Assembly (NCBI GenBank): GCA_049303795.1
Contig: JBAQNM010000013.1
Location: forward strand, 2,784 to 66,783
Origin: Candidatus Moraniibacteriota bacterium
GTDB taxonomy: Bacteria; Patescibacteriota; Minisyncoccia; Moranbacterales; UBA2206
DNA: 64,000 nt
Direction of reading: 5' to 3'
Part shown: positions 3,910 to 24,850 of the stretch, piece by piece
How the letters are laid out: every line of letters starts with the position of its first letter
Position numbering within the stretch: position 1 is the stretch's first letter
The notes under the pieces: generated by a model
Databases searched by the model: none
What the model was told of the DNA's origin: nothing
What the model saw: only the letters and a program-made list of their open reading frames with translations
Program-made: the position numbers and the translations under genes

Positions 3910-3913
3910 CATT

Positions 3914-4534: not shown

Positions 4535-4538
4535 GAAA

Positions 4539-6648: not shown

Positions 6649-6773
6649 TTATGAGTGAAATATTTTTTCTAATTTACAGTATATGTCTATCTATTTTAAT
6701 TTTTAATCTCATTTTTTAAATGTTCCCATAATGTATGTTTTCGGAAGTTTTTAATTTGTAATAAATCAATAAT

Positions 6774-7253
6774 ATGACAGTAAAAATTAAGTTTTTAAAT
6801 TCGGTTGGGCAGGAGAGGTTTTTGCATAATTTGGTGAATGCTAAAAAGAGAAACCTAAACTATAAACATTTGTATCATAGACTTATCAATGAAGCTAAAG
6901 ATAAAGTATCTTTTCACATCAGCGATGAAAACAATAATGCGGTTGTTTTTTGTGAGATAAATTTTTATCCCGCTGAGAATCTGGTGGACATTGAATGTCA
7001 GCCTTGCGATTTTGGTAAACTACAATCATTTCTAATATTTGATTTGTTGGAATCCATCAATGAGAAAGCCGTGGCTAGATTTATTGATGAGAAATTTTAC
7101 TTTGATGGCAGTGTGGATTTCTATATTTTGATTGATGGAAAAAAAGAGATAATCCGCAAAGTTTCTTCAGATAGGGAAAATTTATTGGAAGTGACAAATG
7201 CCAGAATTATCGGGCAAGTTATGGTTGAAATTAAGGCACTTGACTTGATTTAG
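6774..7253 (+). CDS. Hypothetical protein
   Basis: 159-aa ORF between terminase and integrase. Confidence 0.4.
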   Translation: MTVKIKFLNSVGQERFLHNLVNAKKRNLNYKHLYHRLINEAKDKVSFHISDENNNAVVFCEINFYPAENLVDIECQPCDFGKLQSFLIFDLLESINEKAVARFIDEKFYFDGSVDFYILIDGKKEIIRKVSSDRENLLEVTNARIIGQVMVEIKALDLI

Positions 7254-7267
7254 GATACGAAGGTAAT

Positions 7268-8158
7268 GTGTGTCACAATGAAGTAAAGAGGCACACAAAA
7301 ATGCATAGGTATATAAAAAAATATATAGAATATCTTCGCATCGAAAAAGGATTGAGCGAAAATACGATTGAGATTTATACTAGGGACCTTTTGGAATTCG
7401 GAAAATTTATAAAAAAGTTATCGTTTAATAAATTGGCAAGGACTCACATTCGTGAGTTTCTTTGCTTTTTAGTAGAGAAAAACAATCAGCCGATAACTAG
7501 AAGAAGAAAAATGACATCAATTAAAAACTTCTTTGAATTTTTGGAGAATGAGGATTTGATAAAAAACAGTCCAGTTAAAAATATTGCAACATTAAAAGTT
7601 AAAGAAAATGAACCAAGTTATTTGACTGAACAGGAATTGAAAAAGTTAATCAAGGTTGTCAGTGAAGACAAATCTAAACATCAAGAAAGAAACAAATTGA
7701 TGATAAAGATTTTGATTGAAACAGGCATCAGAATTTCAGAGCTAACAAATTTAAGTGTTGGAGATATCGATACTAAATCTAGGATAATAATAGTCAAAAG
7801 AAAGGGTGGTCAAAAACAAAGCATTCCAATAAATATTGAGTTGGCGAAAAATATTAAGCAGTTGGCTAAAAATAAAGAAATATCTGAACCATTGTTTATG
7901 AGCAGTTTTAAAAAGAGAATTACACAAAGAAGAGTAGGGATGCTGGTTCAAAAATATCTGAAGCTAACAAGAATAACCAAACTGAATATTTCAGTCCATA
8001 GCTTACGTCATAGTTTTTGCTCGAGGTTATTGGAAAAAGGCGTGAATCTGAAAACGATTCAAATATTGGCTGGACACAAAAATATTTCGACTACTGAAAG
8101 ATATTTGCATATAGCCAAATCACGGCTCAGAAAGGAGGTGAGGCTGGCGGAAATTTGA
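7268..8158 (+). CDS. Tyrosine recombinase/integrase (XerC/D family)
   Basis: C-terminal catalytic box HSLRHSFCSRLLEKGVNLKTIQILAGHKNISTTERYLH (R..HxxR..Y). Confidence 0.85.
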   Translation: MCHNEVKRHTKMHRYIKKYIEYLRIEKGLSENTIEIYTRDLLEFGKFIKKLSFNKLARTHIREFLCFLVEKNNQPITRRRKMTSIKNFFEFLENEDLIKNSPVKNIATLKVKENEPSYLTEQELKKLIKVVSEDKSKHQERNKLMIKILIETGIRISELTNLSVGDIDTKSRIIIVKRKGGQKQSIPINIELAKNIKQLAKNKEISEPLFMSSFKKRITQRRVGMLVQKYLKLTRITKLNISVHSLRHSFCSRLLEKGVNLKTIQILAGHKNISTTERYLHIAKSRLRKEVRLAEI

Positions 8159-9459: not shown

Positions 9460-10800
9460 ATGAAACAAGCAACGGCTCTGGATATTTTGAAATTGGGACA
9501 TAATGTGTTTTTGACGGGTCCTGCAGGAAGTGGAAAAACATATCTATTAAACCAATATATTCAATATCTTAAAAACAAAAAAATAGGAGTAGCGATAACA
9601 GCTTCAACTGGGATTGCTTCGACACATATGAATGGACAAACTATTCATAGCTGGTCAGGAATGGGCATTAAGGATATATTTACCGAAGCGGATTTTTCAA
9701 AACTTAAAAAAAGACATTTCTACACACAACGTCTCAAGAAAACTAAAGTGCTGATAATAGATGAGGTGTCTATGCTTCACGCTCATCAGTTGGACATTGT
9801 GAATAGTATCTGTAAAAGATTCAAAGAACCATTTTTCCCATTTGGAGGATTGCAAGTTATTCTTTGCGGAGATTTTTTTCAATTGCCTCCTGTGGCAAGA
9901 TATGGAAGCAGGGCAAAATTTGTCATTGAATCAAGAGCGTGGGATGAAATGAATTTGAGAATTTGTTATCTAGAAGAACAGCATCGACAAGAAGACAATC
10001 AAATGCTAAAAATCCTAAACGACATCAGAAGCAGGGCTTGCGACAGCGAAACGATGGGGTTGATTCTTTCCAGAGAAAATAAAACTATAAAAAACAACAT
10101 TGCTCCCACGAGATTATATACTCACAATGCTAATGTAGATGCTATCAATGATTTCGAATTGCAAAAAATCAAAGAAGAACCAAAAGAATTTTTAATGACT
10201 TCTACTGGCATAGAAAATTTAGTGACTACGATTAAGCGAGGGTGCCTGGCTCCTGAAAAACTTATTCTCAAAAAAGGTGCAGTGGTGATGTTTGTGAAAA
10301 ATAATTTTGAAAGAGGTTTTGTTAATGGCACACTCGGGGTTGTCACTGATTTTGAGGAAAGTGGATTGCCAATAGTTCGAACACTTTCAGGCAAGATAAT
10401 TGTTGCTACTCCTGAAAAATGGTCTATTGATGAGGATGAAGTTATACTAGCTTCAGTGACACAAGTGCCACTTCGACTAGCGTGGGCAATCACAGTGCAT
10501 AAAAGTCAGGGGATGACACTAGACGCAGTGGAAATGGATTTGAGTAAATCATTTGAATATGGAATGGGTTATGTAGCTTTGTCGAGAGTTAGAAGATTGG
10601 ATGGTATAAAACTGCTAGGCATCAATGAAACTGCCTTAGAAGTTAATCCAGAAATGTGCGAAATGGACAAAGAATTGGAAAGGCTTTCAGATATAAATTC
10701 CAGTGAGATTAGCGCTATGGGATTTTTCGAAAAAAGAAAGAGACAGAAAGAATTCGTGGAAAAGAATGTTGGTAAGAAAGATTTGACTAAAAAAGTATAA
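9460..10800 (+). CDS. Pif1/RecD-like SF1B DNA helicase
   Basis: Walker A TGPAGSGKT, Walker B LIIDEVSML and C-terminal WAITVHKSQGMTLD typical of Pif1/RecD/TraA helicases. Confidence 0.8.
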   Translation: MKQATALDILKLGHNVFLTGPAGSGKTYLLNQYIQYLKNKKIGVAITASTGIASTHMNGQTIHSWSGMGIKDIFTEADFSKLKKRHFYTQRLKKTKVLIIDEVSMLHAHQLDIVNSICKRFKEPFFPFGGLQVILCGDFFQLPPVARYGSRAKFVIESRAWDEMNLRICYLEEQHRQEDNQMLKILNDIRSRACDSETMGLILSRENKTIKNNIAPTRLYTHNANVDAINDFELQKIKEEPKEFLMTSTGIENLVTTIKRGCLAPEKLILKKGAVVMFVKNNFERGFVNGTLGVVTDFEESGLPIVRTLSGKIIVATPEKWSIDEDEVILASVTQVPLRLAWAITVHKSQGMTLDAVEMDLSKSFEYGMGYVALSRVRRLDGIKLLGINETALEVNPEMCEMDKELERLSDINSSEISAMGFFEKRKRQKEFVEKNVGKKDLTKKV

Positions 10801-10857
10801 ATTCTTTACTTTATAGCTGGATGGCGGTATTATAATAATAGAAAAATATATTATCAT

Positions 10858-12354
10858 ATGGAAAAAATAACGCTTTCAGAACTGGAGCAATTTCTCTGGA
10901 AAAGTGCTGATATTCTCCGAGGAAAAATCGACTCCAGCGACTATAAAAAATACATATTTGGTCTGCTTTTCTATAAGCGGATAAATGACGTTTGGGCTGA
11001 AGAGCACGAGGCGTTTTTAAAGGAGTATAAAAATACAGGAGCGGAAGAAGAACCATTCCACCGATTTCAACTTCCTGAAGATGCTAAATGGGAAACGATT
11101 CAAAATGCTTCACAAGAAATTGGAATAAAATTAGACAAGGCTTTTGAAAAACTGACTAATGCTAATAGTCCGAAATTGGACAAGATTTTTGACGACCTTA
11201 ATTTTGCCGATTCAGATAGATTTCCAAATGATGTCATTCAAAAACTTATCAATCACTTCTCTCATTACAATTTCGGAGACACTTATGTGAATTCGGATAT
11301 TTTGGGAGACGCTTATGAATACCTGATTAAGCAATTTGCAGCCGATGCTGGAAAGAAGGGCGGAGAATTTTATACTCCACGAGAAGTTGAGCGTGTAATA
11401 GTTCAAATCTTGAAGCCTCACGAAAAAGACCATATATATGACCCAACTTGTGGCAGTGGAGGATTCCTATTGGAAGCATATCATTACGTTAAGGAAAAAT
11501 ATGGCGACAAGGCGATAAGAAAACTTTATCTCTATGGTCAGGAACTAAACATCGGAACTTATGCCATCGCCAAAATAAATATGTTTTTGCACGGATTGGA
11601 CGGAGCAGACATTAGAAGAGAGGACACATTAAAAGAGCCGTTATTTAAGGATGAGCTGGGAAACTTAAAAACGTTCGACATCGTGGTAGCAAATCCTCCG
11701 TATTCCATCAAAGAGTGGGCGTTTGAAACTTTTGAGGCAGACAAATATGGAAGACGAAATGGCTTCGATATGCCACCCACAAGAAACGCTGATTATGCAT
11801 TTATTTTGCATATGATTGCTTCGCTTAACCAAAACGGCAGGGCAGGTATTGTTCTTCCACACGGAGTGTTGTTTAGAGGCGGAACCGAAGGAAAGATTAG
11901 AAAACAAATAATCGAAAGAGATTTATTAGAGGCGGTAGTGGCATTACCAGTCAAACTTTTCTATGGCACTGGAATTCCAGCGTGCATATTGATTCTTAAT
12001 AAAAACAAGCTAAAAGAACATAAGGATAAGATTTTACTTATTGATGCCGAGAAGGATTATCTGGAGGGTAAAAATCAGAACAGTTTGCGAGAACAGGATA
12101 TTAAAAAAATAGTTAAAGCATTTGATAATTATCAGGACATTGAAAAATATGCAAGAATTATTGGACTGGATGAACTGAAGGAGAATGCTTTTAATCTCAA
12201 TGTTAGGCGGTATATTAAAAATGACGAAGATGAGGAAAAGATTGATGTAAACAAAGTTTGGAAAGAGCTAACAGAATTAGAAGATGAGAAAGATAAGATA
12301 AATAAAGATGTTGCTGGATATATTAAGAACCTTGGCTATCGAAATAATGATTAA
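10858..12354 (+). CDS. hsdM: Type I restriction-modification methyltransferase subunit
   Basis: HsdM N-terminal LWKSADILRG motif and catalytic NPPY (VVANPPYSIK). Confidence 0.9.
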   Translation: MEKITLSELEQFLWKSADILRGKIDSSDYKKYIFGLLFYKRINDVWAEEHEAFLKEYKNTGAEEEPFHRFQLPEDAKWETIQNASQEIGIKLDKAFEKLTNANSPKLDKIFDDLNFADSDRFPNDVIQKLINHFSHYNFGDTYVNSDILGDAYEYLIKQFAADAGKKGGEFYTPREVERVIVQILKPHEKDHIYDPTCGSGGFLLEAYHYVKEKYGDKAIRKLYLYGQELNIGTYAIAKINMFLHGLDGADIRREDTLKEPLFKDELGNLKTFDIVVANPPYSIKEWAFETFEADKYGRRNGFDMPPTRNADYAFILHMIASLNQNGRAGIVLPHGVLFRGGTEGKIRKQIIERDLLEAVVALPVKLFYGTGIPACILILNKNKLKEHKDKILLIDAEKDYLEGKNQNSLREQDIKKIVKAFDNYQDIEKYARIIGLDELKENAFNLNVRRYIKNDEDEEKIDVNKVWKELTELEDEKDKINKDVAGYIKNLGYRNND

Positions 12355-12359
12355 AAGTA

Positions 12360-13601
12360 ATGCAACAAATAAGAGAAAAGTTAAAAAAGGAATGGAAGAA
12401 ATACAAAGTGAAAGAACTTGGGTGTTTGTATGGTGGATTGACTGGCAAAAATAAAGACGATTTTGGTGAGGGTAAAAAGTTTATTCCGTATATGAATGTC
12501 TTTAGAAATAGCAGGATTGATGTTGAGAATATGAGTCTGGTCAAGATAGACGGAAAGGAGAGGCAGAATAAAGCTGTTTATGGTGATATATTTTTCACTG
12601 GGTCATCAGAAACGCCAGAAGATGTTGGAATGAGTTCCGTTCTTTTAGATGAATCTGAGGAGGATGTTTTTTTAAATAGTTTTTGTTTTGGATTGCGATT
12701 GAATAGTTTTGATGTGTTGATGCCAGAGTTTGCTAGATTTTTGTTTCGTTCCCCTGATTTGAGAAAAAAAATATCGCTACTTGCCCAAGGCTCAACCAGG
12801 TTCAATTTATCAAAAAAACACTTTTTAGATATAAATCTGAGTTTACCATCACTAAATGAACAGAAAAAGATTGCTAAAATTTTATTAAGAGTAGATGAGG
12901 ATATTGAAAATGTCGGTAAGACCATAAAGCAAACAATTAAATTGAAAAATGGATTGATGCAGGGGCTATTAACGAAGGGGATAGGACATAAAAAATTTAA
13001 GAAGACAAAATTGGGGATAATTCCAGAAGAATGGGATATCGCTTTGCTCGATTCCGTTGCGAAACGAGGCAGTGGACATACTCCAAGCAAATCAAAACCA
13101 AATTATTGGAACGGAGGTATCAAGTGGGTTTCTTTAGCTGATTCTTCTGAACTGGACAATAGATACATTTGTTCTACCGATAAGGAGATAAGTGAGGATG
13201 GGATAAAAAATTCATCGGCTGTGTTGCATCCAGCAGGAACTGTAATTTTATCTCGTGATGCAGGAGTAGGAAAGAGTGCGGTGTTATCTTGCGAGATGGC
13301 AGTAAGCCAGCATTTTATTGGTTGGCAGTGCGGTGACAGTCTAAGTAATTTCTATTTATATTATTTATTTCAAAATTGGAAGAGCGAGTTTGAAAGGATA
13401 GCCACAGGCACAACTATAAAAACAATAGGGTTGCAGTTTTTCAAAGACTTAAAGGTGCCATTGCCAAGCTATAAAGAGCAAAAAAAAATCGCAGATATTT
13501 TAACAAGAGTTGATGACAAAATCGATGTTTATAAAAGTATTAAATCAAAACTTGAAATTTTGAAAAAGGGATTGATGCAGGATTTATTTGTTAGTGATTA
13601 A
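12360..13601 (+). CDS. hsdS: Type I restriction-modification specificity subunit
   Basis: Two target-recognition domains separated by conserved LPxL.EQKKIA repeats (LPSLNEQKKIAKIL / LPSYKEQKKIADIL). Confidence 0.85.
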   Translation: MQQIREKLKKEWKKYKVKELGCLYGGLTGKNKDDFGEGKKFIPYMNVFRNSRIDVENMSLVKIDGKERQNKAVYGDIFFTGSSETPEDVGMSSVLLDESEEDVFLNSFCFGLRLNSFDVLMPEFARFLFRSPDLRKKISLLAQGSTRFNLSKKHFLDINLSLPSLNEQKKIAKILLRVDEDIENVGKTIKQTIKLKNGLMQGLLTKGIGHKKFKKTKLGIIPEEWDIALLDSVAKRGSGHTPSKSKPNYWNGGIKWVSLADSSELDNRYICSTDKEISEDGIKNSSAVLHPAGTVILSRDAGVGKSAVLSCEMAVSQHFIGWQCGDSLSNFYLYYLFQNWKSEFERIATGTTIKTIGLQFFKDLKVPLPSYKEQKKIADILTRVDDKIDVYKSIKSKLEILKKGLMQDLFVSD

Positions 13602-13606
13602 AAAAT

Positions 13607-14500
13607 ATGTCCATATTGGAAGAACAAATGAATATATGGGCAAAGGCTCCAAGTGAAACGGAGGAAACTAAATGCCAAAATGCGGTTAGTAGGATTACCG
13701 ATACTATAAGAAAGAAATTTGGTAATGATGTTTCTATTTTATTACAGGGTTCTTATAAAAATAGGACTAATGTTAGATTGGATAGTGACGTAGATATAGT
13801 GGTTTCTCATCAAGGACATTTCTTCCCTGGTCTCAGTAATTTATCACCTGCTGATAAGGAAGTTTATCATAGTATATATAAAAACTCAGACTACACATTT
13901 TCCCAGTTCAAGAATGACATTCATATAATTTTACAGGACGAGTTTGATGCTGGAGAGGTTGAGCGAAAAAATAAATGCATAAAAATAAAGGGTAATTCAT
14001 ATAGAGTTAACGCAGATGTTGTTCCTTGCTATCCTCATCGCAGATATAGAAGTGTGAGTGATGTGGAAGTGGAAGGATTTGGGTTCGTTGGTGATGATGG
14101 CGTGACAGTTTATAGTTTTCCAGAACAACATTATGATAATGGAGTGGGCAAAAACAAAGAAACCGAGCAGATGTATAAGTCATTGGTGAGGATATTAAAA
14201 AATGTAAGAAATGATTTGGTAGATAAAGGCATAATCACGCTAGACGATATGCCTTCTTTCTGCTTAGAGTGTCTAGTGTGGAATGTTCCCTCGGAGCATT
14301 TTATAAGGAATAGATATCACGATGCAACACGAATTGTCCTAGCGACTATTTGGAATGAGATGAGGGAATTTGAGAAGTCGAATAATTATGCGGAAGTTAG
14401 TGACTTAAAATGGTTATTTAGGGGGAGCAGTAAAATAACACCCAAGCAAGCTGAAAATTTTATGCAACACGCTTGGGATTACATAGGATATGAAAATTAA
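13607..14500 (+). CDS. cGAS/DncV-like nucleotidyltransferase (CD-NTase, SMODS-type); CBASS cyclase candidate
   Basis: Pol-beta nucleotidyltransferase signature GS-x10-DSDVD (LLQGSYKNRTNVRLDSDVDIVV) plus third acidic residue in the cGAS/OAS-like hDhhP strand (NADVVPCY); 297 aa, typical CD-NTase size. Confidence 0.65.
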   Translation: MSILEEQMNIWAKAPSETEETKCQNAVSRITDTIRKKFGNDVSILLQGSYKNRTNVRLDSDVDIVVSHQGHFFPGLSNLSPADKEVYHSIYKNSDYTFSQFKNDIHIILQDEFDAGEVERKNKCIKIKGNSYRVNADVVPCYPHRRYRSVSDVEVEGFGFVGDDGVTVYSFPEQHYDNGVGKNKETEQMYKSLVRILKNVRNDLVDKGIITLDDMPSFCLECLVWNVPSEHFIRNRYHDATRIVLATIWNEMREFEKSNNYAEVSDLKWLFRGSSKITPKQAENFMQHAWDYIGYEN

Positions 14501-15089
14501 CTCAAACAACTATAAAAAATTTACTTACTTTATTCTAGTTCTTATTGGAATAAGTTCCTTTGTCGTTTACAAAATGTTTGATTTGATAGAAGCAAATAAC
14601 ATAAAAATTCCATTTTATTTTTCCATTCCTTCTATTCCAGCGGTTTATGGTTTACTTTTCTTGGCGTTCGACAGGGTGCTGTGGAAATGGAAAATTTTTA
14701 GGATGCTTGGAATTATTACCGCTGATGATTTGAATGGAGAATGGGAGGGGACTGCCAAATCTTCTTTTGAAGAATTCAAAGAGGAAATAAAGGTTAAACT
14801 AAAAATAAAGCAAACCGCTACAGAAATGACAGTTTATGGTTGTTTTGATAATTCAAAATCAATTAGTCTGAATGCAAATTTTGAGAAAAATGATGTTGAT
14901 GATGGAGTGGCATTATTTTATTTTTATAGAAATCAGCCAGACTATGATGCCAAGGAAACAATGGCAATACACGAAGGTGCTACCAAGTTAATTTATAATA
15001 AACAAGATAATTCCCTGACAGGATTCTACTTCTCTGGAAGAAATAGAAATAATCACGGAACAATCAAGGTGTTTAAGGATAAGAAATAA
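14490..15089 (+). CDS. 2TM beta-rich effector, Cap15/S-2TMbeta-like; CBASS effector candidate
   Basis: Two N-terminal TM helices (FTYFILVLIGISSFVVY, IPAVYGLLFLAF) then a ~120-aa beta-rich soluble domain; start overlaps the cyclase stop by 11 nt. Confidence 0.5.
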   Translation: MKINSNNYKKFTYFILVLIGISSFVVYKMFDLIEANNIKIPFYFSIPSIPAVYGLLFLAFDRVLWKWKIFRMLGIITADDLNGEWEGTAKSSFEEFKEEIKVKLKIKQTATEMTVYGCFDNSKSISLNANFEKNDVDDGVALFYFYRNQPDYDAKETMAIHEGATKLIYNKQDNSLTGFYFSGRNRNNHGTIKVFKDKK

Positions 15090-15093
15090 CATT

Positions 15094-18012
15094 ATGAAAT
15101 TTAACGAACAGCACACCATAGAAAATCACATAATCAAATACTTCAAAAATGACTTGAAGTATGAATACATCAAACCTGAAGAGTTTGCTAAATTCAGGGA
15201 GTTTGAAAATGAATATCTGATTACTCCGCTTCTTCAGGAATCAATCAAAAAACTGAATGGCATTGATGACGATAATCTTGTCCAGCTTCTAACCAAGGAA
15301 CTTAAGAAGATAGACAATAACGAGGAATTTTTGATGGCTCTGCGGAACGGCATAAACTATAAAGACCCAGCGACTGGCAAAAAGACAGACTATAAGGTGG
15401 TTGATTTTGAAAATATAGACAATAACCGTTTTGTCGTTACCAATCAGTTCTATTTTGAAGGCAACGCTGAAAACATCAGACCAGATGTGATGGTATTCGT
15501 TAACGGCATTCCAGTATCTGATATTGAAGCCAAGAGTCCAACAGCATCTATTACAGTCAGCTGGGAGAACGCAGTCGGACAAATCAAGCGGTATGAGAAT
15601 GTTGCTCCAAGGATGTTTATCGCTAACTGTTTCAATGTGGTGACTGACGGAACGGAAAGTGGAACTCGCTATGCTTCTACTCATTCACCGATTCAATACT
15701 TTTTCCAGTGGAAAGACGAAGAGAATAAAGACAAGTTTGAGGGCAATCTGGAGCTGACACTTTGGAATCTATTTAACAAGAAGCAACTTTTGGATATTAT
15801 TCAAAACTTTATTGTCTTTGAGAAAGAAGGTGGAAAAGTAGTTAAGAAAGTTTGTCGCTACCAGCAGTATAGAGCATCCAATAAGATTTTAGACAGAGTT
15901 ATTAAAAACGAGAGCAAGAAAGGACTCGTTTGGCATACTCAAGGCTCTGGAAAATCAATGACGATGTTTTTCACGGCTTGGAAATTGCGTTATGCGAAGG
16001 AGCTGAAGAATCCGAAAGTCTTTATTTTGGTTGACCGCATTGATTTGGATGACCAACTGCACGACACATTCACGGCTTGCGGTGGTAAGAATGTGATGCG
16101 AGTCACTTCCAGAAAAGTTCTGGAAGATAAAATAACCAGCGATGAACGAGGGATATTTATCACAACCATCCAGAAGTTTTCCGAACTTGGGAAAAATATC
16201 GAAAATGAAGATAGTAACATTGTCGTCTTGACTGACGAGGCTCATCGCACCAATGAGGGAATATCAGGAATCAACGCTCGGTCATCACTCAAGAACGCTT
16301 TTTGGTTTGGCTTTACTGGAACACCGATTGATAGGACTACTCTGAACACGCATCGCAATTTTGGCGAGGAAGGGGAGCGGTATTTAGATTATTATTCTAT
16401 CCAGCAAGCGATTGACGATGGGGCGACTTTGCCAGTGTATTTTGAGACTCGCCTGTCCAAGTATTTCATAAACGAGGAAGGGCTGGATGAACAATTCGAT
16501 GAATTAACCAAAGGACTCACTGACAAGCAAAAGGAAGAACTGAAAAAGGCGTATGGCAAAAAAGAAGCGATTGTAAAATTGATTAAAAGGGTAGAAGCCG
16601 TTGCTGTCGATATTGCCGAGCATTACAAGATTTATATTTTGCCGAATAACTTTAAGGCTCAAGTGGTTTGCTATGATAAGGAGGCTTGTTTAATGTATAA
16701 AAAAGCGTTAGACAAGGTTATCCCAGAAAACTGGTCTAAGATAATTTATTCGACTGGGGATTTGAATGTTGAAGCGGATGAAATAAAGAAATACTACACG
16801 ACTAAGGATGAGAGAAAGAAATTCATCGAAGCCTTCAAAGACAAAAATCAAGACCCAAAGATTTTGATTGTCTGCGATATGTTGCTTACTGGATTTGACG
16901 CTCCGATTGAGCAGGTGATGTATTTAGATAAACCGCTTCTTGACCACAGCTTACTTCAAGCTATTGCCAGAACTAACCGAGTTTATCCGAACAAGGGTTG
17001 TGGTAAGGTTATCGACTATTACGGCATAACGAGAAGTTTGGAGAAAGCGTTAGATTTTGACGAGAGCATTATCAATTCCGCAATGATTGATATTGATAGG
17101 CTCAAAGAGCAGTTCCAAGAGAAATTGAAGGATTGTCTAGATATATTTGCTGGAATCAATATCGAAGACCCATCAATGGAGAATCTGCGAAGAAGCCTCC
17201 GCATCTTTGCCGATAACAGGGATAAGCAGAAAATGTTTGAAAATCTGTTCAGCAAAATCAAGCTGATATTTGAAATAATTTCTCCAGACCCATTCTTGAA
17301 GCCGTATGTAAGACAAGTAGAATGGCTCGCCAGTTTTTACATTGCTTATACCAGAGAATTCAAGGCACAAACTGATGAGGAAATCCGAATGGAAGAATAC
17401 GGTGAGAAAATCAAGAAACTTATTCAGGAGAAAATAGACTTGCAGGGAATCATCAGAACTTTCAGAGAAATAAATATAGGAGATTTATATCAAATCAAGC
17501 AATTGGAGAAGATGGAGGATGAAGACAAAGCAAGAGCATTGGAAAAGATGCTTAAGAGTGAAATCTCCATAAATCTGGATACGAATCCGACTTATGACAA
17601 ATTCAGCGAAAGGTTGATGAAAATCAAAAAGGACTTTGAGGATAATCAGATAGATTTGGATAAGAAAATCAAAGAACTTCAGAAATTGAGAGAGGACTTG
17701 GTGGACAAGAGGGATGAAGCCAAAAAACTCGGCTATAACTTGCAGGAATACGGCATTTACGTTATTTCACAGGAATTCATTGAGAATATAGATAGCAAAG
17801 AAACTAAGCCATTTATTCAGGATATGGTTGAGGCGATAACTGATACACTGGACACTGGTTGGCAAGAGTCGTCTAAAAAAGAAGAATTTATCAAGGAAAT
17901 TAGACGTAAATTAACCAAGCTGATTCTCAAGGATTATCAAGAAAAGATTAAGATTAAGGATTTTGCCAAATATCTTAATAGAATTATTGACGTAATCCAA
18001 AGGAAATTTTAA
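15094..18012 (+). CDS. hsdR: Type I restriction enzyme R subunit (SF2 helicase/endonuclease)
   Basis: 972 aa; DEAH-box-like LTDEAHRT and the other helicase motifs; typical HsdR N-terminal region. Confidence 0.9.
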   Translation: MKFNEQHTIENHIIKYFKNDLKYEYIKPEEFAKFREFENEYLITPLLQESIKKLNGIDDDNLVQLLTKELKKIDNNEEFLMALRNGINYKDPATGKKTDYKVVDFENIDNNRFVVTNQFYFEGNAENIRPDVMVFVNGIPVSDIEAKSPTASITVSWENAVGQIKRYENVAPRMFIANCFNVVTDGTESGTRYASTHSPIQYFFQWKDEENKDKFEGNLELTLWNLFNKKQLLDIIQNFIVFEKEGGKVVKKVCRYQQYRASNKILDRVIKNESKKGLVWHTQGSGKSMTMFFTAWKLRYAKELKNPKVFILVDRIDLDDQLHDTFTACGGKNVMRVTSRKVLEDKITSDERGIFITTIQKFSELGKNIENEDSNIVVLTDEAHRTNEGISGINARSSLKNAFWFGFTGTPIDRTTLNTHRNFGEEGERYLDYYSIQQAIDDGATLPVYFETRLSKYFINEEGLDEQFDELTKGLTDKQKEELKKAYGKKEAIVKLIKRVEAVAVDIAEHYKIYILPNNFKAQVVCYDKEACLMYKKALDKVIPENWSKIIYSTGDLNVEADEIKKYYTTKDERKKFIEAFKDKNQDPKILIVCDMLLTGFDAPIEQVMYLDKPLLDHSLLQAIARTNRVYPNKGCGKVIDYYGITRSLEKALDFDESIINSAMIDIDRLKEQFQEKLKDCLDIFAGINIEDPSMENLRRSLRIFADNRDKQKMFENLFSKIKLIFEIISPDPFLKPYVRQVEWLASFYIAYTREFKAQTDEEIRMEEYGEKIKKLIQEKIDLQGIIRTFREINIGDLYQIKQLEKMEDEDKARALEKMLKSEISINLDTNPTYDKFSERLMKIKKDFEDNQIDLDKKIKELQKLREDLVDKRDEAKKLGYNLQEYGIYVISQEFIENIDSKETKPFIQDMVEAITDTLDTGWQESSKKEEFIKEIRRKLTKLILKDYQEKIKIKDFAKYLNRIIDVIQRKF

Positions 18013-18569
18013 TGAAGAAGCAAATCAAACTACAAAACAAAAAAGTAGATTACATCGTGAAGAAAAGCAAGCGAGCCAAGAGGCTTCGGTTGGCAATCTA
18101 TTGCGATGGAAGTTTTGTGGTTACTGCTCCAAATGGATTGGATACAATCAAGATAGAAAATTATATTTTACAAAAAGCGGAATGGGTTTTGGAAAAACTG
18201 AGGATAATGAAGAAGCGAAGCCATAATCCTGTATTTACGAAACGAAGCGATAAGGAATATCTGGAACTGCGAGACGAGGCACTGGTGATGGCTCAGAGGA
18301 AAGTGAGTAAATTCAATAAGGTTTACGGATTCAAGTTTAATAAGATTGCAATCAAAAATCAAAAGACCAGATGGGGAAGCTGTTCTAAAAAGGGAAATTT
18401 GAATTATAACTACAAGATTGCACTGCTTCCAGAAAAATCAGCCGATTACATCATTGTTCACGAGCTGTGCCATCTCAAAGAATTCAATCACAGCAGAAAG
18501 TTTTGGAACTTAGTAGAAAGGGTGTTGCCTGATTACAAGGAGCGAATAGAGAAAATAAAGAAATTATAA
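18012..18569 (+). CDS. DUF45/YgjP-family metal-dependent hydrolase (WLM-like HExxH), the hsdR-associated type
   Basis: HELCHLKEFNHS HExxH motif; ATGA stop/start overlap with hsdR. Confidence 0.7.
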   Translation: MKKQIKLQNKKVDYIVKKSKRAKRLRLAIYCDGSFVVTAPNGLDTIKIENYILQKAEWVLEKLRIMKKRSHNPVFTKRSDKEYLELRDEALVMAQRKVSKFNKVYGFKFNKIAIKNQKTRWGSCSKKGNLNYNYKIALLPEKSADYIIVHELCHLKEFNHSRKFWNLVERVLPDYKERIEKIKKL

Positions 18570-18573
18570 AAAG

Positions 18574-19335
18574 ATGTCTGAATACTACAAAGCAAAAAGA
18601 ACACGAAACATTTTTGACCCAAAGTCAAAAGAACCATTCAAATTGAGTCGCTCAAAAATTGACTTGTTTTTGAATTGTCCTCGTTGTTTTTATATGGACA
18701 GAAGATTGGGAGTTGGGCGTCCACCCGGATTTCCTTTTAATCTTAATTCAGCTGTTGACGCTTTGCTCAAAAAAGAATTTGATATTTATCGAGCCAAGAA
18801 AACCACACATCCCTTGATGGAAGAATATGGAATTGATGCTGTGCCATATCAAAGCGAAAAAATGGACGAGTGGCGAGATTCGTTGCGAAGAGGAATCCAA
18901 CACCTTCACGAAAAAACAAACCTGTTGCTTACTGGTGGGGTGGATGATGTTTGGGTAAATCCTAACGGCGAATTGATAATAGTGGATTATAAGGCTACTT
19001 CAAAGAATGGAGAAGTTAGTCTGGATGCTGATTGGCAGATTGGATACAAAAGGCAGATGGAGATGTATCAATGGCTGTTTAGAAAAAATGGATTTAAGGT
19101 TGCTGAGACTGGCTATTTTGTCTATTGCAACGGAGATGCGGACAAAGAAGCCTTTGATGGCAAGTTAGAGTTTGATATAAAGGTTATTCCGTATAAAGGG
19201 GATGACAGCTGGGTAGAAAACACATTGGCAGATGTAAAAAAGTGCCTAATGAGTTCTGAAATACCAAAAGCATCAAATGATTGTGATTATTGCAATTATG
19301 TTATGGCAGTGAATAGCGTGGAAAAACGTAAATAA
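18574..19335 (+). CDS. Cas4-like / RecB-family PD-(D/E)xK nuclease with Fe-S cysteines; standalone
   Basis: IIVDYKAT core motif; N-terminal CPRCF and C-terminal C..CDYC cysteines match the Cas4 1+3 Cys pattern. Confidence 0.6.
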   Translation: MSEYYKAKRTRNIFDPKSKEPFKLSRSKIDLFLNCPRCFYMDRRLGVGRPPGFPFNLNSAVDALLKKEFDIYRAKKTTHPLMEEYGIDAVPYQSEKMDEWRDSLRRGIQHLHEKTNLLLTGGVDDVWVNPNGELIIVDYKATSKNGEVSLDADWQIGYKRQMEMYQWLFRKNGFKVAETGYFVYCNGDADKEAFDGKLEFDIKVIPYKGDDSWVENTLADVKKCLMSSEIPKASNDCDYCNYVMAVNSVEKRK

Positions 19336-19363
19336 TTTAGAGTAGTCATTTAAGGAGGTTTAA

Positions 19364-19387
19364 AACGGGGAATACCCTGTTTTTTTG
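19364..19387 (+). terminator. Intrinsic terminator
   Basis: CGGGG-AATA-CCCTG hairpin followed by T7. Confidence 0.4.
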
Positions 19388-19436
19388 TTGACAATCAGTG
19401 TGGTTATGTTAGAATTAGGTAAGTTAATACCATAAC
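19388..19436 (+). promoter_or_regulatory. Sigma70-like promoter (TTGACA-16 nt-TAGAAT) with an operator-like 7-bp inverted repeat (GGTTATG / CATAACC) flanking the -10
   Basis: TTGACA 19388-19393 and TAGAAT 19410-19415; inverted-repeat arms at 19402-19408 and 19430-19436; lies just upstream of the repressor gene. Confidence 0.5.
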
Positions 19437-19448
19437 CTAACAATAAAA

Positions 19449-20084
19449 ATGAATAATAACGAACTTTTAACGCTTAAAGAAGCTTGCAAATTGCTCAATT
19501 GCCATCCTAACACACTTCGTAAGTGGGCTGATGATGGCAAAGTTCAGGCAATTAGATTCGGAAAAAGAGGCGACAGACGCTTCAGGGCACAGGATATTGT
19601 AAAAAGTATGCAGAAGCCAATCGCAGAAAAAGAACAAGAGATTCGTTACGAGAAAGAGAATGAAGTTCTAATACCATTACGTGGTATAGCCTCGTGCGGA
19701 ACCCCAGAATTTTATGCTCAGGACAATATTGATGATTATATAAGTGTTAGTAGGAGTCTTATTAAGGATGAGCGAGATAGATATTATTTTCTCCGTGCTT
19801 CGGGAACGTCAATGCTTCAGGCTGGGATAAGCGATTCATCCCTTGTTTTAGTTTTTCAAAAAGATTATTACGAAAATGGCGATGATGTTGTTGCGGTGCT
19901 TGATGGAACTGCTTGTATTAAAAGATTTTATAAGGGTAAATCCGCTCTAATGCTAATGCCCGTGACAAATGACGAATCTCATAAACCTATTGTAACTAAT
20001 GAGAATGTCCACATAGCCGGGAAAGTAGTTTGCTCAATTCCAGTTCCGAATAGTGATGAAATTCAATATATCCCTGTTTTTTAA
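19449..20084 (+). CDS. HTH plus S24 peptidase repressor (LexA/phage CI-like)
   Basis: N-terminal MerR/excisionase-type HTH (LTLKEACKLLNCHPNTLRKWA); C-terminal S24 catalytic Ser (ASGTSM) and Lys (CIKRFYKGK). Confidence 0.75.
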   Translation: MNNNELLTLKEACKLLNCHPNTLRKWADDGKVQAIRFGKRGDRRFRAQDIVKSMQKPIAEKEQEIRYEKENEVLIPLRGIASCGTPEFYAQDNIDDYISVSRSLIKDERDRYYFLRASGTSMLQAGISDSSLVLVFQKDYYENGDDVVAVLDGTACIKRFYKGKSALMLMPVTNDESHKPIVTNENVHIAGKVVCSIPVPNSDEIQYIPVF

Positions 20085-20136
20085 ATATCTTCCAGCTGGG
20101 CTGGCTTGATATATATAATCATTAAAGAAAAACCAA

Positions 20137-20259
20137 ATGGCAAAGATAAAAACGGTTCACCGTAGTTCTGTCAGTGGTAGGTTTGTCAAAAAAGGACAAG
20201 TAAAAAAAAGTCCTCGCACAACCGAGACTGAACGCATTCGCACAAGGCGATGTAAATAA
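20137..20259 (+). CDS. Small basic ORF (40 aa, MAKIKTVHRSSVSGRFVKKGQVKKSPRTTETERIRTRRCK); speculative
   Basis: ATG 22 nt after a TATAAT at 20114-20119 and followed by an 8-bp perfect hairpin (20267-20298). It competes with minus-strand ORF 20122-20400. Confidence 0.25.
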   Translation: MAKIKTVHRSSVSGRFVKKGQVKKSPRTTETERIRTRRCK

Positions 20260-20332
20260 AAAGAGCGACCGAGATTGCTTTGGAAGGTGGTCTCGGTCAC
20301 CCTCTCTAACTAACCTAACTATATCACAAAAA

Positions 20333-20743
20333 ATGGAAAGCGAAAAACATAATTCTCTAGTAAGAGAATTGGCAAGTATTTTTGGGAAAAATGGATTCAA
20401 TGTTTATGCAGTTGATGGAGTAACAGTGAAATGTCCTAGTGCTGTAGAAAATAACAATAATATAGGAGATTGCCAAAACAAAATTCCTGATATTGAGGCT
20501 TATGATGAACTTAATAAAAGAGTAATTAGAGGAGAAGCAAAGATAGGCAATGGGGATATTGAGTCTGAACATTCAATAACTCAATATAAATTATTTTCAA
20601 GCTTGAATAAAAATGGCGTTGATTCTTGGGTATATATTATTATCCCGCAAGGAGAAAAAATGTTTCTTGAAAAAGTCTTAGCTGAAAATGTGTTACAGAA
20701 GTTTCTAGATAATATTGGAATCATTGAATCTGCTAATTATTAG
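20333..20743 (+). CDS. Hypothetical protein
   Basis: 136-aa ORF, co-directional. Confidence 0.4.
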   Translation: MESEKHNSLVRELASIFGKNGFNVYAVDGVTVKCPSAVENNNNIGDCQNKIPDIEAYDELNKRVIRGEAKIGNGDIESEHSITQYKLFSSLNKNGVDSWVYIIIPQGEKMFLEKVLAENVLQKFLDNIGIIESANY

Positions 20744-21040
20744 AACTCAAAGATGAAACTTATAAGTTACAGCTTAATAAACTCTATAAAAAAAATTATT
20801 CTTTCAATTTTTCCTATTAAAGTTACCAACAGTAATAATAGGAAAATTATTAACAAAAAAATATATGACAAAAGTAACAAAACCGAACAAAGAATTTTGG
20901 GAAACGGAGAAAAGACCATCGTATATGAAAATTTCTAAAATAAAAAATGATAAAAGTGAAGATGGTTATATCATCAGATTTAAAACTGAAAAATCAAAAA
21001 AGAAGAAATTAAAAAGCTAGGGATAAAGATATAAAATCTA

Positions 21041-21388
21041 ATGAAAGAAATTGTATGCAAAAAGTGTGAAACTAAACTGCCTGATGAAAAATCAGTTTGT
21101 CTAAAATGTGGAAATAAGAGCAAATTGTATAAAGTTGCTATTACTGACGTCGTCACTTTTACTGAAAACTTTGGAATAAAACAAAAAGCTAAAGGCTTCA
21201 AAAATTTTATGGTTGAATTTATTTCAAGGCATAAGAGCAGTGGCGATATACAGAAGTATCCTGAAGGGGTCATTGAAGAAAGAAGGATTGATAAGGGAAA
21301 CAAAACTTATTATCAGAAAGTGATTGATAAGAAAACAGGAAAAGTTACTCATTTTGAAAACGAGTCATTATTAAAACATAAGGATTAA
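21041..21388 (+). CDS. Zinc-ribbon hypothetical protein
   Basis: N-terminal CKKCETK...CLKCG knuckles; 115 aa. Confidence 0.4.
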   Translation: MKEIVCKKCETKLPDEKSVCLKCGNKSKLYKVAITDVVTFTENFGIKQKAKGFKNFMVEFISRHKSSGDIQKYPEGVIEERRIDKGNKTYYQKVIDKKTGKVTHFENESLLKHKD

Positions 21389-21394
21389 TCTAAA

Positions 21395-22666
21395 ATGGAT
21401 ATACTAAACAAACCAATTGAATATTTTAAATTTGAAGATGTAGTCGCGTTTTGCGAAAAAGGATATAGAGAAGGATTTCAAATTGATTATAAGCGGGATT
21501 ATTCTTCAAAAGGATTATCAAAACATATAGTGGCTTTATCCAATAGTAGGGGTGGAGTAATTATAATTGGAGTGGAGGAAGATATTAAAACGGGATTTCC
21601 GAAAAGCTGGGATGGCATAGATACTGATGCGAAGCAAATAGAAAAATTACATCAAGAAATAGCAAATATTGAGCCATTTCCTTCTTGCATTGTTCACGCT
21701 ACAGATTCAAAAAATGATAAGTTTTTTATTTTAGTCAGGGTTTTTGCAGGATACAACACTCCTTATTATGTGCAAAATGATTCAAATGTCTATGTCAGAA
21801 CAGGGAATATTACAAAGCAAATAGACATTGCTTCTCCAGATGGACTGGAACTTATGTTTGGAAAGAAAGAGAAAGCTGAAAAATCTAGAAAAATATATCT
21901 GTCAATGGCTGATGAAATTTTTGACGCAAAGATATTAAAGAAAGAAGATGAAATAATAAGAGAGAGTAGAAAGGTGGGCGAGGAAGTTATTTTTAAAAGC
22001 AGAAGGTTTCTTATTGCAGATGTCTCTATATGTGAGATAACTATCCAGCCATTTTTTCCAGAAAAATCATTTGCTAATCCAAAAGAAATAAAAGATGGAA
22101 TTGATGAGATTAGATTTGGGAATGGAAATTTTACATTTCCTGAATTAAATTTATCACCTTCGCCAAAAGGAATTATGTTTTTTACCTTTCTGAAGCACAA
22201 TAGTTTAATTGAGTTTCAGCAAATTTTTGGTCAAGGACTAATTCAAAATAAATTTACTATTTCGGTATTAAACGAAGATACTGGATTTAAAATAGTGAGC
22301 CTTTGGAGAATGGCTGTTAGAATTTTCGGTGTATTTCAATTTGCCAAGAAATTTTATAACAAATATGGTTACAGCGGAGTGTTAATAGGAAGAATAAATT
22401 TGGCTGGCTTAGATGGTGCATTTGCAAGGCAATTAACGCCCGCTGGTCGTGATTTTTGGGAAAAAGATAGGGAGTGTTTGCTTACTGAATGTAACTGGGA
22501 CATAAGAATTGATACTAATATTTTAAATAATGAAGAGGATTTAAAAAAATACTTTATAAATTTATTGAGAGAAATTTATTGGGATTTAGGATTTGAAAAT
22601 ATTATGGAAGATGTTGTTGACGATTTCTTGAAACAAAGTGGCCTATCTTTTGAAGTGGATAACTAA
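21395..22666 (+). CDS. AlbA_2 (Schlafen-like) domain protein
   Basis: HIVALSNSRGGVIIIGVEED matches the AlbA_2 core (AfaN..GG.lliGV.D); 423 aa with an uncharacterised C-terminal half. Confidence 0.55.
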   Translation: MDILNKPIEYFKFEDVVAFCEKGYREGFQIDYKRDYSSKGLSKHIVALSNSRGGVIIIGVEEDIKTGFPKSWDGIDTDAKQIEKLHQEIANIEPFPSCIVHATDSKNDKFFILVRVFAGYNTPYYVQNDSNVYVRTGNITKQIDIASPDGLELMFGKKEKAEKSRKIYLSMADEIFDAKILKKEDEIIRESRKVGEEVIFKSRRFLIADVSICEITIQPFFPEKSFANPKEIKDGIDEIRFGNGNFTFPELNLSPSPKGIMFFTFLKHNSLIEFQQIFGQGLIQNKFTISVLNEDTGFKIVSLWRMAVRIFGVFQFAKKFYNKYGYSGVLIGRINLAGLDGAFARQLTPAGRDFWEKDRECLLTECNWDIRIDTNILNNEEDLKKYFINLLREIYWDLGFENIMEDVVDDFLKQSGLSFEVDN

Positions 22667-23618
22667 TTTGACTTATTTTCTCACGAAGGTAACATCGAAC
22701 AAATCGATGTTATTTTTTAAAAAACAAAATTCAATAAAAATTAGTGAAGCTGGAAAGAAATATCTGGATTATTGTGAATTGGAAAAAGAGATGAGTCCTG
22801 CTTCAATTTATGAATACAGTAAAGTTATAAAATGGACGGTGGAAATATTAGGTAACCTTGAGGCTGGGAAAATAAAGGAAGAGCATATTGCAGAACTTAA
22901 GAAAGAATATAACAGAAGAGAATTGATGCCAACCACAAGAGCTCATAACTTATCTGTTATCAGAGAACTATTGAGATTTTGTCAGGATGAATTGCATATC
23001 AAAGTAATGGATTTTGAAAAAATAAAAAGACCAAAGATTCCAAAAAGAAGAGTTGATTATCTCACAGAAGAAGAATTGAAAAGGTTTTTTGATTCAATCG
23101 GAAAACGCAGTATCAGAGATTCTAGATTTAGAGCGTTTATTTCAGTTCTTATTTCCACGGGCTGTCGAATAAGTGAAGCATTGAATCTGAAAATTCAAGA
23201 TATGGATTGGGAGAGAAAAGAAGTGACCATTGTTGGTAAAGGCAACAAACAAAGAAAATTATATTTTACTGAATGGTCATTGAAATGTATCAGGGAATAT
23301 ATTGAAAAAAGAGGCTATGAAGGAAAATTTATTTTTGTAGCTGAAAGCAAGACAAATCGCTGGGATAGAAATGATGCTCAGCGGAATTTCAGAAATTATC
23401 GCAGGAAGCTAGGATTATCTGCAAACTTCACTGCTCACACAATTCGTCACAGCTTCGCTACGCTTCTTATGAAAAAAGGTGTCAGTCTCGGACATATTCA
23501 AGTTTTGCTCGGGCATTCAGACATCCAAACCACCAGCAAACACTATCTGGGAATTTTGAGTGATGACGAAGCTAAGCAGGCACACGAAAAGGGGATGAAT
23601 ATGAATAATTGGGTATAA
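22638..23618 (+). CDS. Tyrosine recombinase/integrase (XerC/D family). GTG start in the ORF track; an ATG at 22707 is an alternative.
   Basis: HTIRHSFATLLMKKGVSLGHIQVLLGHSDIQTTSKHYL catalytic box; RISEALNL arginine box. Confidence 0.85.
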   Translation: MAYLLKWITNLTYFLTKVTSNKSMLFFKKQNSIKISEAGKKYLDYCELEKEMSPASIYEYSKVIKWTVEILGNLEAGKIKEEHIAELKKEYNRRELMPTTRAHNLSVIRELLRFCQDELHIKVMDFEKIKRPKIPKRRVDYLTEEELKRFFDSIGKRSIRDSRFRAFISVLISTGCRISEALNLKIQDMDWERKEVTIVGKGNKQRKLYFTEWSLKCIREYIEKRGYEGKFIFVAESKTNRWDRNDAQRNFRNYRRKLGLSANFTAHTIRHSFATLLMKKGVSLGHIQVLLGHSDIQTTSKHYLGILSDDEAKQAHEKGMNMNNWV

Positions 23619-23661
23619 TTAGAGCATAAAAACGTTATAATTGGCTGAAAAATAAGATAAG

Positions 23662-23770
23662 AATGATATAAAAATAATGGCTTATTATAGCCATTTATAT
23701 AAAAAAATAGACCCTGCTATTGATTTATTATATCAAAAATGATATAATAAAAGCATAAAAATGATATAAA
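23662..23770 (+). repeat. Three direct copies of AAAATGATATAA (23662, 23738, 23760) plus a 7-bp hairpin (AATGGCT / AGCCATT, 23676-23698)
   Basis: Read directly; between the integrase 3' end and the Fic gene. Confidence 0.45.
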
Positions 23771-23774
23771 ACTT

Positions 23775-24842: not shown

Positions 24843-24850
24843 TCAATTTT

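Follow-up and report, generated by a model that had tools for sequence, protein, structure and literature searches.

Why should the genes of a nucleotide-signalling defence lie between two subunits of a restriction enzyme? The question is raised by a 64-kb stretch of DNA (64,000 nt; hereafter the window, whose positions serve as coordinates throughout) from an uncultured Candidatus Moraniibacteriota bacterium of the Patescibacteria (assembly GCA_049303795.1, contig JBAQNM010000013.1). Positions 10858–19335 hold a densely packed string of genes, all on the forward strand: hsdM and hsdS of a type I restriction–modification (R-M) system, a cGAS/DncV-like nucleotidyltransferase (CD-NTase), an effector with two transmembrane helices (2TM), hsdR, a YgjP/DUF45 peptidase, and a Cas4-like nuclease. 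An earlier reading, made from the sequence only, had listed six of these open reading frames (ORFs), all of which we confirmed at the same coordinates and on the same strand. It had proposed that the CD-NTase and its neighbour form a minimal cyclic-oligonucleotide-based antiphage signalling system (CBASS) carried inside the R-M operon. We find that the two proteins are CdnE and Cap15, and we consider it quite probable that they work as an autonomous type I-B CBASS, housed in a cargo slot of an intact type I R-M operon within a mobile defence island. Homologous loci compared with the window are labelled by L-numbers (L003, L092, and so on).

The cyclase and its effector

By sequence and by predicted fold, the 297-aa protein is a clade-E CD-NTase (CdnE) with a Pol-beta-like core and a C-terminal helical bundle. 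The PADLOC cyclase model spans residues 2–296 (1.8e-99), and the best five sequence matches in the PDB are all CdnE structures (6e0m at 2.7e-80, then 7x4a, 7x4f, 7x4c, and 6e0k), with Em-CdnE first, followed by ClCdnE, LpCdnE, EfCdnE, and RmCdnE. Precomputed Pfam CD_NTase_C matches are present on all homologues of the cyclase, and a Pfam scan of the protein itself returned weak matches to NTP_transf_2 (6.2e-05) and SMODS (7.4e-05, below the cut-off). An AlphaFold model built with 43 homologues had a predicted local distance difference test score (pLDDT) of 88.8. In Foldseek searches this model reached a template modelling (TM) score of 0.92 to 7x4a and a target-normalised 0.92 to 6e0m, 6e0n, and 6e0o; ranks 1–12 were all CdnE structures (Cl, Em, Lp, Ef, and Rm), with CdnD, CdnC, CdnB, and cGAS placed lower.

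These profile and fold comparisons bear out the CD-NTase call of the sequence-only reading. The motifs that it had picked out are also present, with one correction: nine residues, not ten, separate G48-S49 from D59-S-D61-V-D63, which is followed by N135-A-D137-V-V-P-C-Y. G48, S49, D61, D63, and D137 are invariant across an alignment of 43 cyclase homologues. The ratio of nonsynonymous to synonymous substitution rates (dN/dS) for cdnE is 0.08–0.13 across three lineages, with dS saturated. The cyclase had been described as small, divergent, and impossible to assign to a clade. It is instead a normal-sized member of clade E, with 45% global identity to Em-CdnE (292 aa) over the full length and 1702 database homologues at E ≤ 1e-20.

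The 199-aa protein is Cap15, again on the evidence of both sequence and model. Pfam Cap15_CD_rec matches residues 80–194 with 86.7 bits against a cut-off of 31.2, Cap15_TM scores 19.1 bits and so falls under its cut-off of 28.2, and the PADLOC 2TM effector model covers the full length of the protein (8.5e-54). Similarity to the sequence of the crystallised Yersinia Cap15 (PDB 7n34) was found at 3.9e-06. In the structural model (pLDDT 86.8), helices at residues 8–35 and 49–62 precede an eight-stranded barrel at 83–196, and a hydropathy profile likewise shows two hydrophobic segments. The sole Foldseek matches below 1e-3 were 7n34 and 7n35, with target-normalised TM scores of 0.82–0.87. The proposed Cap15-like effector therefore stands, and the alternative that had been raised for it, a membrane protein associated with HsdS, is excluded. 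Within the hsd family of the window, Cap15 is always accompanied by a cyclase. For cap15, dN/dS is about 0.09–0.10, also with dS saturated.

Together cdnE and cap15 make up a complete type I-B CBASS of two genes; PADLOC and Pfam scans of the eight neighbouring proteins gave no match to Cap2/Cap3 (E1/E2/JAB), HORMA, or TRIP13. Proteins identical to those of the window are named ‘nucleotidyltransferase’ and ‘hypothetical protein’ in GenBank, in metagenome-assembled genomes (MAGs) of Candidatus Moraniibacteriota. The names CdnE and Cap15 can now replace these labels, with the locus annotated as a composite R-M and CBASS unit in a Patescibacteria genome.

The earlier reading had also held that the nucleotide product could not be assigned from sequence, but two published determinants allow a prediction. 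In clade E, an Asn in lid 1 (N166 of Rm-CdnE) reads a uracil acceptor, and an N166S change leads to cAA; an (R/Q)xW motif limits the donor pocket to pyrimidines; and Em-CdnE makes cGA, cAA, and cGG (PMC10442399). In the window cyclase the lid-1 position aligned with N166 is Ser170 (VYSFPEQH), and (R/Q)xW is absent, with S275 and I277 aligned to R275 and W277 of ClCdnE. Both features match Em-CdnE (PDB 6e0m, 6e0n, and 6e0o), the nearest solved relative, although that enzyme comes from a different phylum (Elizabethkingia meningoseptica). Because of these two features, the product of the window CdnE is predicted to be a di-purine cyclic dinucleotide.

The closest studied parallel in architecture is the Ssc-CdnE03 and Cap15 pair of S. 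schleiferi (type I-B CBASS; Banh et al. 2023, PMC10686824), in which a clade-E cyclase is likewise followed by Cap15 with no accessory genes. There, a structured phage RNA (cabRNA) activates the cyclase, the resulting cGAMP acts on Cap15, and Cap15 damages the membrane; when carried on a plasmid that lacks R-M genes, Ssc-CBASS confers immunity (PMC10686824). The Ssc locus is described as flanked by type I R-M, and we liken the window to it by architecture and by that description. Unlike the Ssc locus as described, the window pair lies between hsdS and hsdR, with junctions of 4–5 nt, in a bacterium of the Candidate Phyla Radiation (CPR).

If the window system works in a similar way, the HsdM2S1R2 complex would methylate host DNA and cut unmodified incoming DNA, as type I systems do, and CdnE would stay idle until it met a phage-derived cue, which for the studied CdnE03 is structured phage RNA. 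Active CdnE would then make a cyclic dinucleotide, predicted to be di-purine, whose binding to the Cap15 beta-barrel would disrupt the membrane and abort the infection, catching phages that escape restriction. The CBASS would be mechanistically autonomous, and its position in the slot would reflect recombination in the hsdS 3′ and hsdR 5′ flanks. Exchange of cassettes into the slot would bring co-transfer and co-expression with the R-M genes, so that two layers of defence travel together.

A cargo slot between hsdS and hsdR

The pair sits exactly between hsdS and hsdR and in the same orientation, as had been claimed. Spacings are 5 nt between hsdM and hsdS and again between hsdS and the cyclase gene, 4 nt between the effector gene and hsdR, and 4 nt between ygjP and the gene for the Cas4-like nuclease. 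The cyclase and effector genes share 11 nt, and hsdR and ygjP share 1 nt. The sequence-only reading was right that the genes are co-directional, that the effector start overlaps the cyclase stop, and that the hsdR stop overlaps the start of the DUF45 gene; its gaps of 5–15 nt are actually 4–5 nt or overlaps.

Two loci, L003 and L006, with cyclases 77% and 69% identical to that of the window, keep the order hsdM-(small ORFs)-hsdS-cdnE-cap15-hsdR-ygjP and have different outer flanks. Amino acid identities between the window and L003 are 90% for HsdM, 88% for HsdR, 77% for CdnE, 81% for Cap15, and 82% for YgjP; the corresponding values for L006 are 82, 81, 69, 68, and 69%. HsdS is only about 30% identical in either comparison, as expected for swapped specificities. 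Nucleotide homology of the window with both loci is unbroken over 13476–18568, and the layout is kept to 73% nucleotide identity. Judged from these alignments, the nested arrangement is inherited and under purifying selection.

A metagenome scan with HsdR recovered 32 loci of the hsd family of the window, and these define the edges of the slot. On the left is the conserved 3′ end of hsdS (13476–13588, ...LMQDL...); on the right is the nearly invariant 5′ start of hsdR, ATGAAATTYAACGAACA..., conserved across the family. In L092, the operon with the closest HsdR (98% identical in amino acids and 88% in nucleotides), homology with the window ends at 13588 and restarts at 15086, 8 nt short of the ATG of hsdR. 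Between these points L092 has genes for an Abi_alpha protein (PADLOC PDC-S47) and for a PDC-S32 protein, with no CBASS. The slot of L093 (HsdR 92% identical in amino acids) is also filled by non-CBASS cargo. Elsewhere in the family the cargo includes Shedu SduA_C, DUF4145, Bro-N, DUF3800, HATPase_c, and beta-flower proteins, a 745-aa PrrC/RloC-like ABC ATPase (PDC-S06), and proteins of no recognised kind. In L094 and L111 the slot is empty and the hsdS stop overlaps the hsdR start (ATGA). The junction comparison that the earlier reading had suggested thus finds a known cargo site, holding CBASS, other cargo, or nothing, and no oddity of one genome. This series of empty, CBASS-filled, and otherwise filled sites, including one with an HsdR 98% identical to that of the window, should be useful for studying the exchange of defence cassettes.

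One relative, L040, carries a 92-codon fragment of the hsdR 5′ end right after Cap15 (L040:11544–11822), 79% identical over 213 nt to the full hsdR start. The fragment is followed by extra cargo, which includes a HATPase_c_4/winged helix-turn-helix protein, and then by an intact hsdR (13952–17152). This duplicate and the nearly invariant hsdS 3′ and hsdR 5′ ends are consistent with an exchange of cassettes through homologous recombination in the flanks. We also considered integron- or att-type sites and rejected them: a search for direct repeats over window positions 1–30000 returned only chance-level AT-rich pairs and an internal repeat of hsdS. Junctions of 4–5 nt leave no space for attC-like sites, and we prefer homologous recombination in the flanks for this reason. 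No tRNA or Rfam element that might serve as an integration target or a regulator was found within the window.

In two further loci, L071 (11560–13641) and L082 (11635–13670), the slot holds a GmrSD-like type IV enzyme beside the CBASS, fused in L071 and split into N- and C-terminal parts in L082. With the GmrSD-like enzyme, CBASS, and R-M together, each of these operons carries three layers of defence. There is also a second cargo slot, between hsdM and hsdS, which is occupied in nearly all relatives and empty in the window (5-nt gap). Its cargo consists of small proteins, mostly of unknown function, as in L003 (3305–3896), L006 (6251–6781), L092 (6823–7377), and most of L093–L118. The L092 example had no Pfam match, and those of L003 and L006 had no precomputed Pfam match.

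A more distant member of the family, L145 (L145:3247–11086; GCA_002305675.1), has CBASS in the same slot, with identities to the window of 62% for HsdR, 69% for HsdM, and 54% for YgjP. Its Cap15 is 54.5% identical to that of the window. Its cyclase (313 aa) is only 37% identical and has Asn, not Ser, at the lid-1 position. The stand-alone cyclases nearest to that of the window (63–65%) are paired with Cap15s of 33–36% identity. From these sequences, the mismatch between L145 and the window suggests that cyclases and effectors have been re-paired, possibly by a swap of the cyclase in situ.

The insertion had been called atypical, but the same hsdS–hsdR slot or its like is documented for PrrC, DarTG2, and TgvAB, and the cassette itself recurs across phyla. 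In EcoprrI (hsdM-hsdS-prrC-hsdR), PrrC is an abortive-infection gene that occupies the same slot, in the same direction as its neighbours, as a second line behind restriction. It differs in being a single ABC-ATPase/nuclease that is silenced physically by EcoprrI and freed by the phage Stp peptide, and its effector chemistry is unrelated. CBASS would need no coupling of the PrrC and EcoprrI kind, and position is all that PrrC shares with the window pair. DarTG2 in the RRDM island of enteropathogenic Escherichia coli occupies the same hsdS–hsdR slot as the window cassette (PMC12255303), and TgvAB in the VPI-2 island of V. cholerae is, like the window pair, a set of defence genes embedded in type I R-M (PMC11411939). 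Embedded cargo is reported to share the orientation of its operon, and a hot spot of recombination has been proposed at this site.

Defence genes embedded in R-M systems have been surveyed under the name ‘guilt-by-embedding’ (Payne et al., preprint 10.1101/2024.01.29.577857). The window cassette is embedded in the sense of that survey, with its genes lying, on one and the same strand, between those of a multi-gene system. Cargo in the sister operons of the window matches PADLOC PDC families defined by embedding, whereas the cargo of the window is CBASS, which goes unmentioned in the main text and the accessible supplements of the survey. Both parts of the locus are of known kinds, and the embedding of defence genes in type I R-M is already established. 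What the window adds is that CBASS joins PrrC, DarTG2, TgvAB, and the PDC families among the abortive-infection modules found in this slot.

Recurrence in restriction operons and what it may mean

We scanned species-representative genomes with an alignment of the cyclase and classified the closest 80 of 238 matches, using purpose-built profiles for the neighbouring genes. Among these 80, 57 loci were classifiable, 22 were unclassifiable, and 1 was fragmented. Thirteen of the 57 are flanked by hsd genes on both sides, 4 border an hsd gene where the contig ends, 2 are immediate neighbours of a complete hsd operon, and 38 stand alone. The nested loci show four gene orders (M-S-[]-R, M-[]-S-R, R-M-[]-S, and R-S-[]-M, with brackets for the cassette), and the R subunits that flank the cassette belong to two Pfam families, T1RH-like_C and EcoEI_R_C. 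In a neighbour-joining tree, which carries no support values, embedded cyclases fall in at least six clades and are interleaved with stand-alone ones. Going by record titles, hosts include Patescibacteria, Verrucomicrobiota, Chloroflexota, Proteobacteria, and Bacteroidota, labels that are subject to the binning of the MAGs. Nesting in R-M operons is thus common for the CdnE-Cap15 module and no oddity.

Plasmids carry related arrangements. In a Companilactobacillus plasmid the CdnE-Cap15 pair lies immediately 3′ of hsdR; other plasmid loci stand alone. On R. marinus plasmid pRHOM17201 (NC_015970.1, 15684–22819; L134:4285–11420), Rm-CdnE and Cap15 lie between the Mod and Res subunits of a type III system. 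The cyclase there, the crystallised Rm-CdnE, matches PDB 6e0k at 3e-204, and its operon has junctions of 16 nt and 2 nt and one overlap of 4 nt. A model CBASS enzyme is thus housed in an R-M operon as well. As in the window, a CdnE and a Cap15 are co-directional inside an R-M operon with tight junctions. The Rm locus differs in its type III host system (mod-[CdnE-Cap15]-res), in its lid-1 Asn166, and in its product, cUMP-AMP, and its cyclase is about 30% identical to that of the window. In the open-access literature, a source that omits most subscription journals and is therefore weak evidence on this point, we found no systematic statement that CdnE-Cap15 or CBASS is frequent R-M cargo, only a remark in a figure legend of Banh et al. 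(2023).

On present evidence the association with R-M is most simply explained by co-transfer and co-expression. A different account would follow PrrC and EcoprrI: the Hsd complex might silence CdnE, or by-products of restriction or anti-restriction proteins (Ocr, ArdA, Stp) might activate it, so that evasion or inhibition of restriction would be the specific trigger of the cassette. This would suit the survey, which places the cassette within R-M operons much more often than beside them: of the 57 classifiable loci, 13 have hsd genes on either side, the number rises to 17 with those directly adjacent, and non-adjacent hsd-like genes within about 10 kb occur in just 3 of the remaining loci. 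It would also suit the recurrence of nesting in at least six cyclase clades, two type I families, and one type III system, as well as a layout kept under purifying selection to 73% nucleotide identity. PrrC, in the same position, is regulated in such a manner (preprint 10.1101/2024.01.29.577857), and a link to R-M is seen in both of the best-studied CdnE-Cap15 loci, Ssc and Rm. Against these points, the slot houses many unrelated cargoes, and the operon with the closest HsdR has swapped CBASS for other genes; about 70% of the classifiable loci and most of the plasmid examples stand alone; and Ssc-CBASS, which is triggered by phage RNA, protects without R-M genes. Moreover, four positions relative to M, S, and R and different types of R-M system are hard to square with one specific protein–protein interface. 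We regard silencing or triggering of this kind as unlikely. It also seems improbable to us that CdnE-Cap15 is a dedicated partner of restriction, its cyclase tuned to a signal of ongoing or evaded restriction. The candidate signals in that case would be anti-restriction proteins, nucleic-acid fragments generated by restriction, or loss of the Hsd complex. Such a partnership would explain why the share of classifiable loci that lie in or against type I or type III R-M operons is roughly between a quarter and a third, in unrelated phyla and with Rm-CdnE and Ssc-CdnE03 among them.

Several points do weigh against an autonomous CBASS that shares the slot and the transcript of the R-M genes. The high recurrence in R-M operons could point beyond hitch-hiking at a hot spot. 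The survey covers the closest 80 of 238 matches, its tree has no support values, and its phylum labels may suffer from errors in MAG binning. For the activating cue we extrapolate from a single studied cyclase, CdnE03, and the product prediction hangs on two residues. Promoter-like matches (10/12) also occur inside hsdS (13333–13362) and cdnE (13900–13929), so the cassette could be transcribed separately. The high share of CdnE-Cap15 in R-M operons is in any case a testable lead, and might stem from synergy between restriction and cyclic-nucleotide signalling or from a coupling of the two. Two further accounts concern the pair itself. It might be a passenger that is decaying or silent, a CBASS that was active once but is now trapped in the operon and without function, as the sub-threshold Cap15_TM match and the streamlining of CPR genomes might hint. 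Both frames are full length, however, the catalytic residues are intact and invariant, and dN/dS is low for both genes with saturated dS in three lineages. Both structural models are confident, and model and hydropathy agree on two N-terminal helices in the effector. We consider decay very improbable. Finally, nucleotidyltransferase toxin–antitoxin pairs of the MNT/HEPN or AbiEii type are also common inside type I R-M operons, and the weak NTP_transf_2 and SMODS matches and the NCBI labels would be compatible with one. Here the full-length PADLOC cyclase match, the match to a crystallised CdnE, the CD-NTase C-terminal domain, and the CdnE fold all speak for a cyclase, and its partner is Cap15 by profile and fold, not a HEPN protein. 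These features rule out such a pair for practical purposes.

The survey also turned up a CdnE clade, mainly from Patescibacteria (L016, L017, L020, L024, L025, L028, L029, L035, and L036), in which the cyclase is followed by a 130–185-aa protein that is not Cap15. This protein (e.g. L035:10579–11046) has hydrophobic segments and a conserved N-terminal motif, ALEERY..IRERVQ..G.W.LG. Among the members from L035, L024, and L017, the two scanned against Pfam matched no family, and a single weak PADLOC match was found (Hydrolase-TM, 4.6e-05). The protein is a candidate for a CBASS effector not yet described.

The gene string and its surroundings

The features of the operon region are collected in the table below. 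All subunits of the type I system are full length, and the motifs NPPY and DPTCGSGG of HsdM and DEAH of HsdR are visible in the translations. From their spacing, the seven genes from hsdM to the PD-(D/E)XK nuclease would form a single transcript. Promoter-like sites in the region are no more numerous than expected from shuffled sequence, and the candidate upstream of hsdM is a weak match to the consensus.

Features of the operon region, in window coordinates.
Feature	Position	Strand	Evidence or remark
Candidate promoter region, upstream of hsdM in 57-nt gap	10805..10839	+	Two overlapping sigma-70-like matches, 9/12
hsdM, type I R-M methyltransferase subunit, 498 aa	10858..12354	+	Pfam N6_Mtase 6.2e-113, HsdM_N 1e-25; PADLOC MTase_I 2.5e-145
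hsdS, specificity subunit, two target-recognition domains, 413 aa	12360..13601	+	Pfam Methylase_S 1.7e-41 (two stretches); PADLOC Specificity_I 1.2e-94
cdnE, clade-E CD-NTase, 297 aa	13607..14500	+	PADLOC PDLC00801 1.8e-99; PDB 6e0m 2.7e-80; model fold
cap15, 2TM and beta-barrel cyclic-dinucleotide receptor/membrane effector, 199 aa	14490..15089	+	Pfam Cap15_CD_rec 1.9e-24; PADLOC 8.5e-54; model fold
hsdR, type I restriction subunit, 972 aa, PD-(D/E)XK N-domain and superfamily 2 (SF2) motor	15094..18012	+	Pfam SWI2_SNF2 3.2e-70, HSDR_N 1.5e-32, ResIII, T1R_D3-like; PADLOC REase_I 3.2e-132
YgjP-like (DUF45) HExxH metallopeptidase; start overlaps hsdR stop	18012..18569	+	Pfam YgjP-like 1e-42
PD-(D/E)XK Cas4-like nuclease, final gene of co-directional string	18574..19335	+	Pfam PDDEXK_1 6.4e-14; PADLOC Cas4 4.7e-09
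Terminator-like hairpin, 9-bp stem and T-run, closes gene string	19362..19383	+	Sole strong one in region
Top promoter-like site of region, precedes S24/helix-turn-helix (HTH) gene	19388..19415		11/12 matches, TG extension

The last two genes of the string differ in how widely they are shared. YgjP also directly follows hsdR in L003, L006, L092–L110, and L145, and is a conserved companion of hsdR in the hsd family. The Cas4-like nuclease is common to the window and L092 and absent from the operons of L003 and L006, and is probably part of the unit in the window lineage only. It has a C-terminal Cys cluster and ends the operon both in the window and in L092 (13421–14239). A close homologue (395 bits; L016:8045–8821) lies 1.1 kb upstream of a stand-alone CdnE on a Berkelbacteria contig.

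The region around the operon looks mobile. Upstream, on the same strand, positions 2851–8158 encode a Dam-type methyltransferase, a ParB-like protein, a TerS-like protein, TerL, and a tyrosine recombinase. No capsid genes lie in the vicinity, and the island is of a phage-derived or satellite-like character; its terminase genes, ParB, methyltransferase, and integrase point to a mobile or degraded phage-like element, not a complete phage. The published activators of CdnE03 are RNAs from phage terS–terL, but we ascribe no such role to the resident terS–terL genes. A phage-borne origin of the unit itself was considered and set aside, as IMG/VR holds only six distant relatives of the cyclase, at 34–42% identity. 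Diverse accessory defences have already been reported in CPR bacteria by a study of the groundwater defensome, and we do not claim CBASS in CPR as new.

A PIF1-like helicase (9460–10800), which ends 57 nt ahead of hsdM, matches the PADLOC candidate families PDC-S68 and PDC-M16A. We rejected it as a member of the operon because it is not kept with the operon in L003, L006, or L092; a homologue is found near the hsd-CBASS locus L024 (15676–17397). Downstream, positions 19449–25441 begin with an S24-peptidase/HTH repressor that has its own promoter-like site, followed by a Schlafen/AlbA_2 protein (21395–22666), a second tyrosine recombinase (22638–23618), a Fic protein (23775–24842), and a peptidase of family S51 (24851–25441). 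These may be further defence or mobile-element genes.

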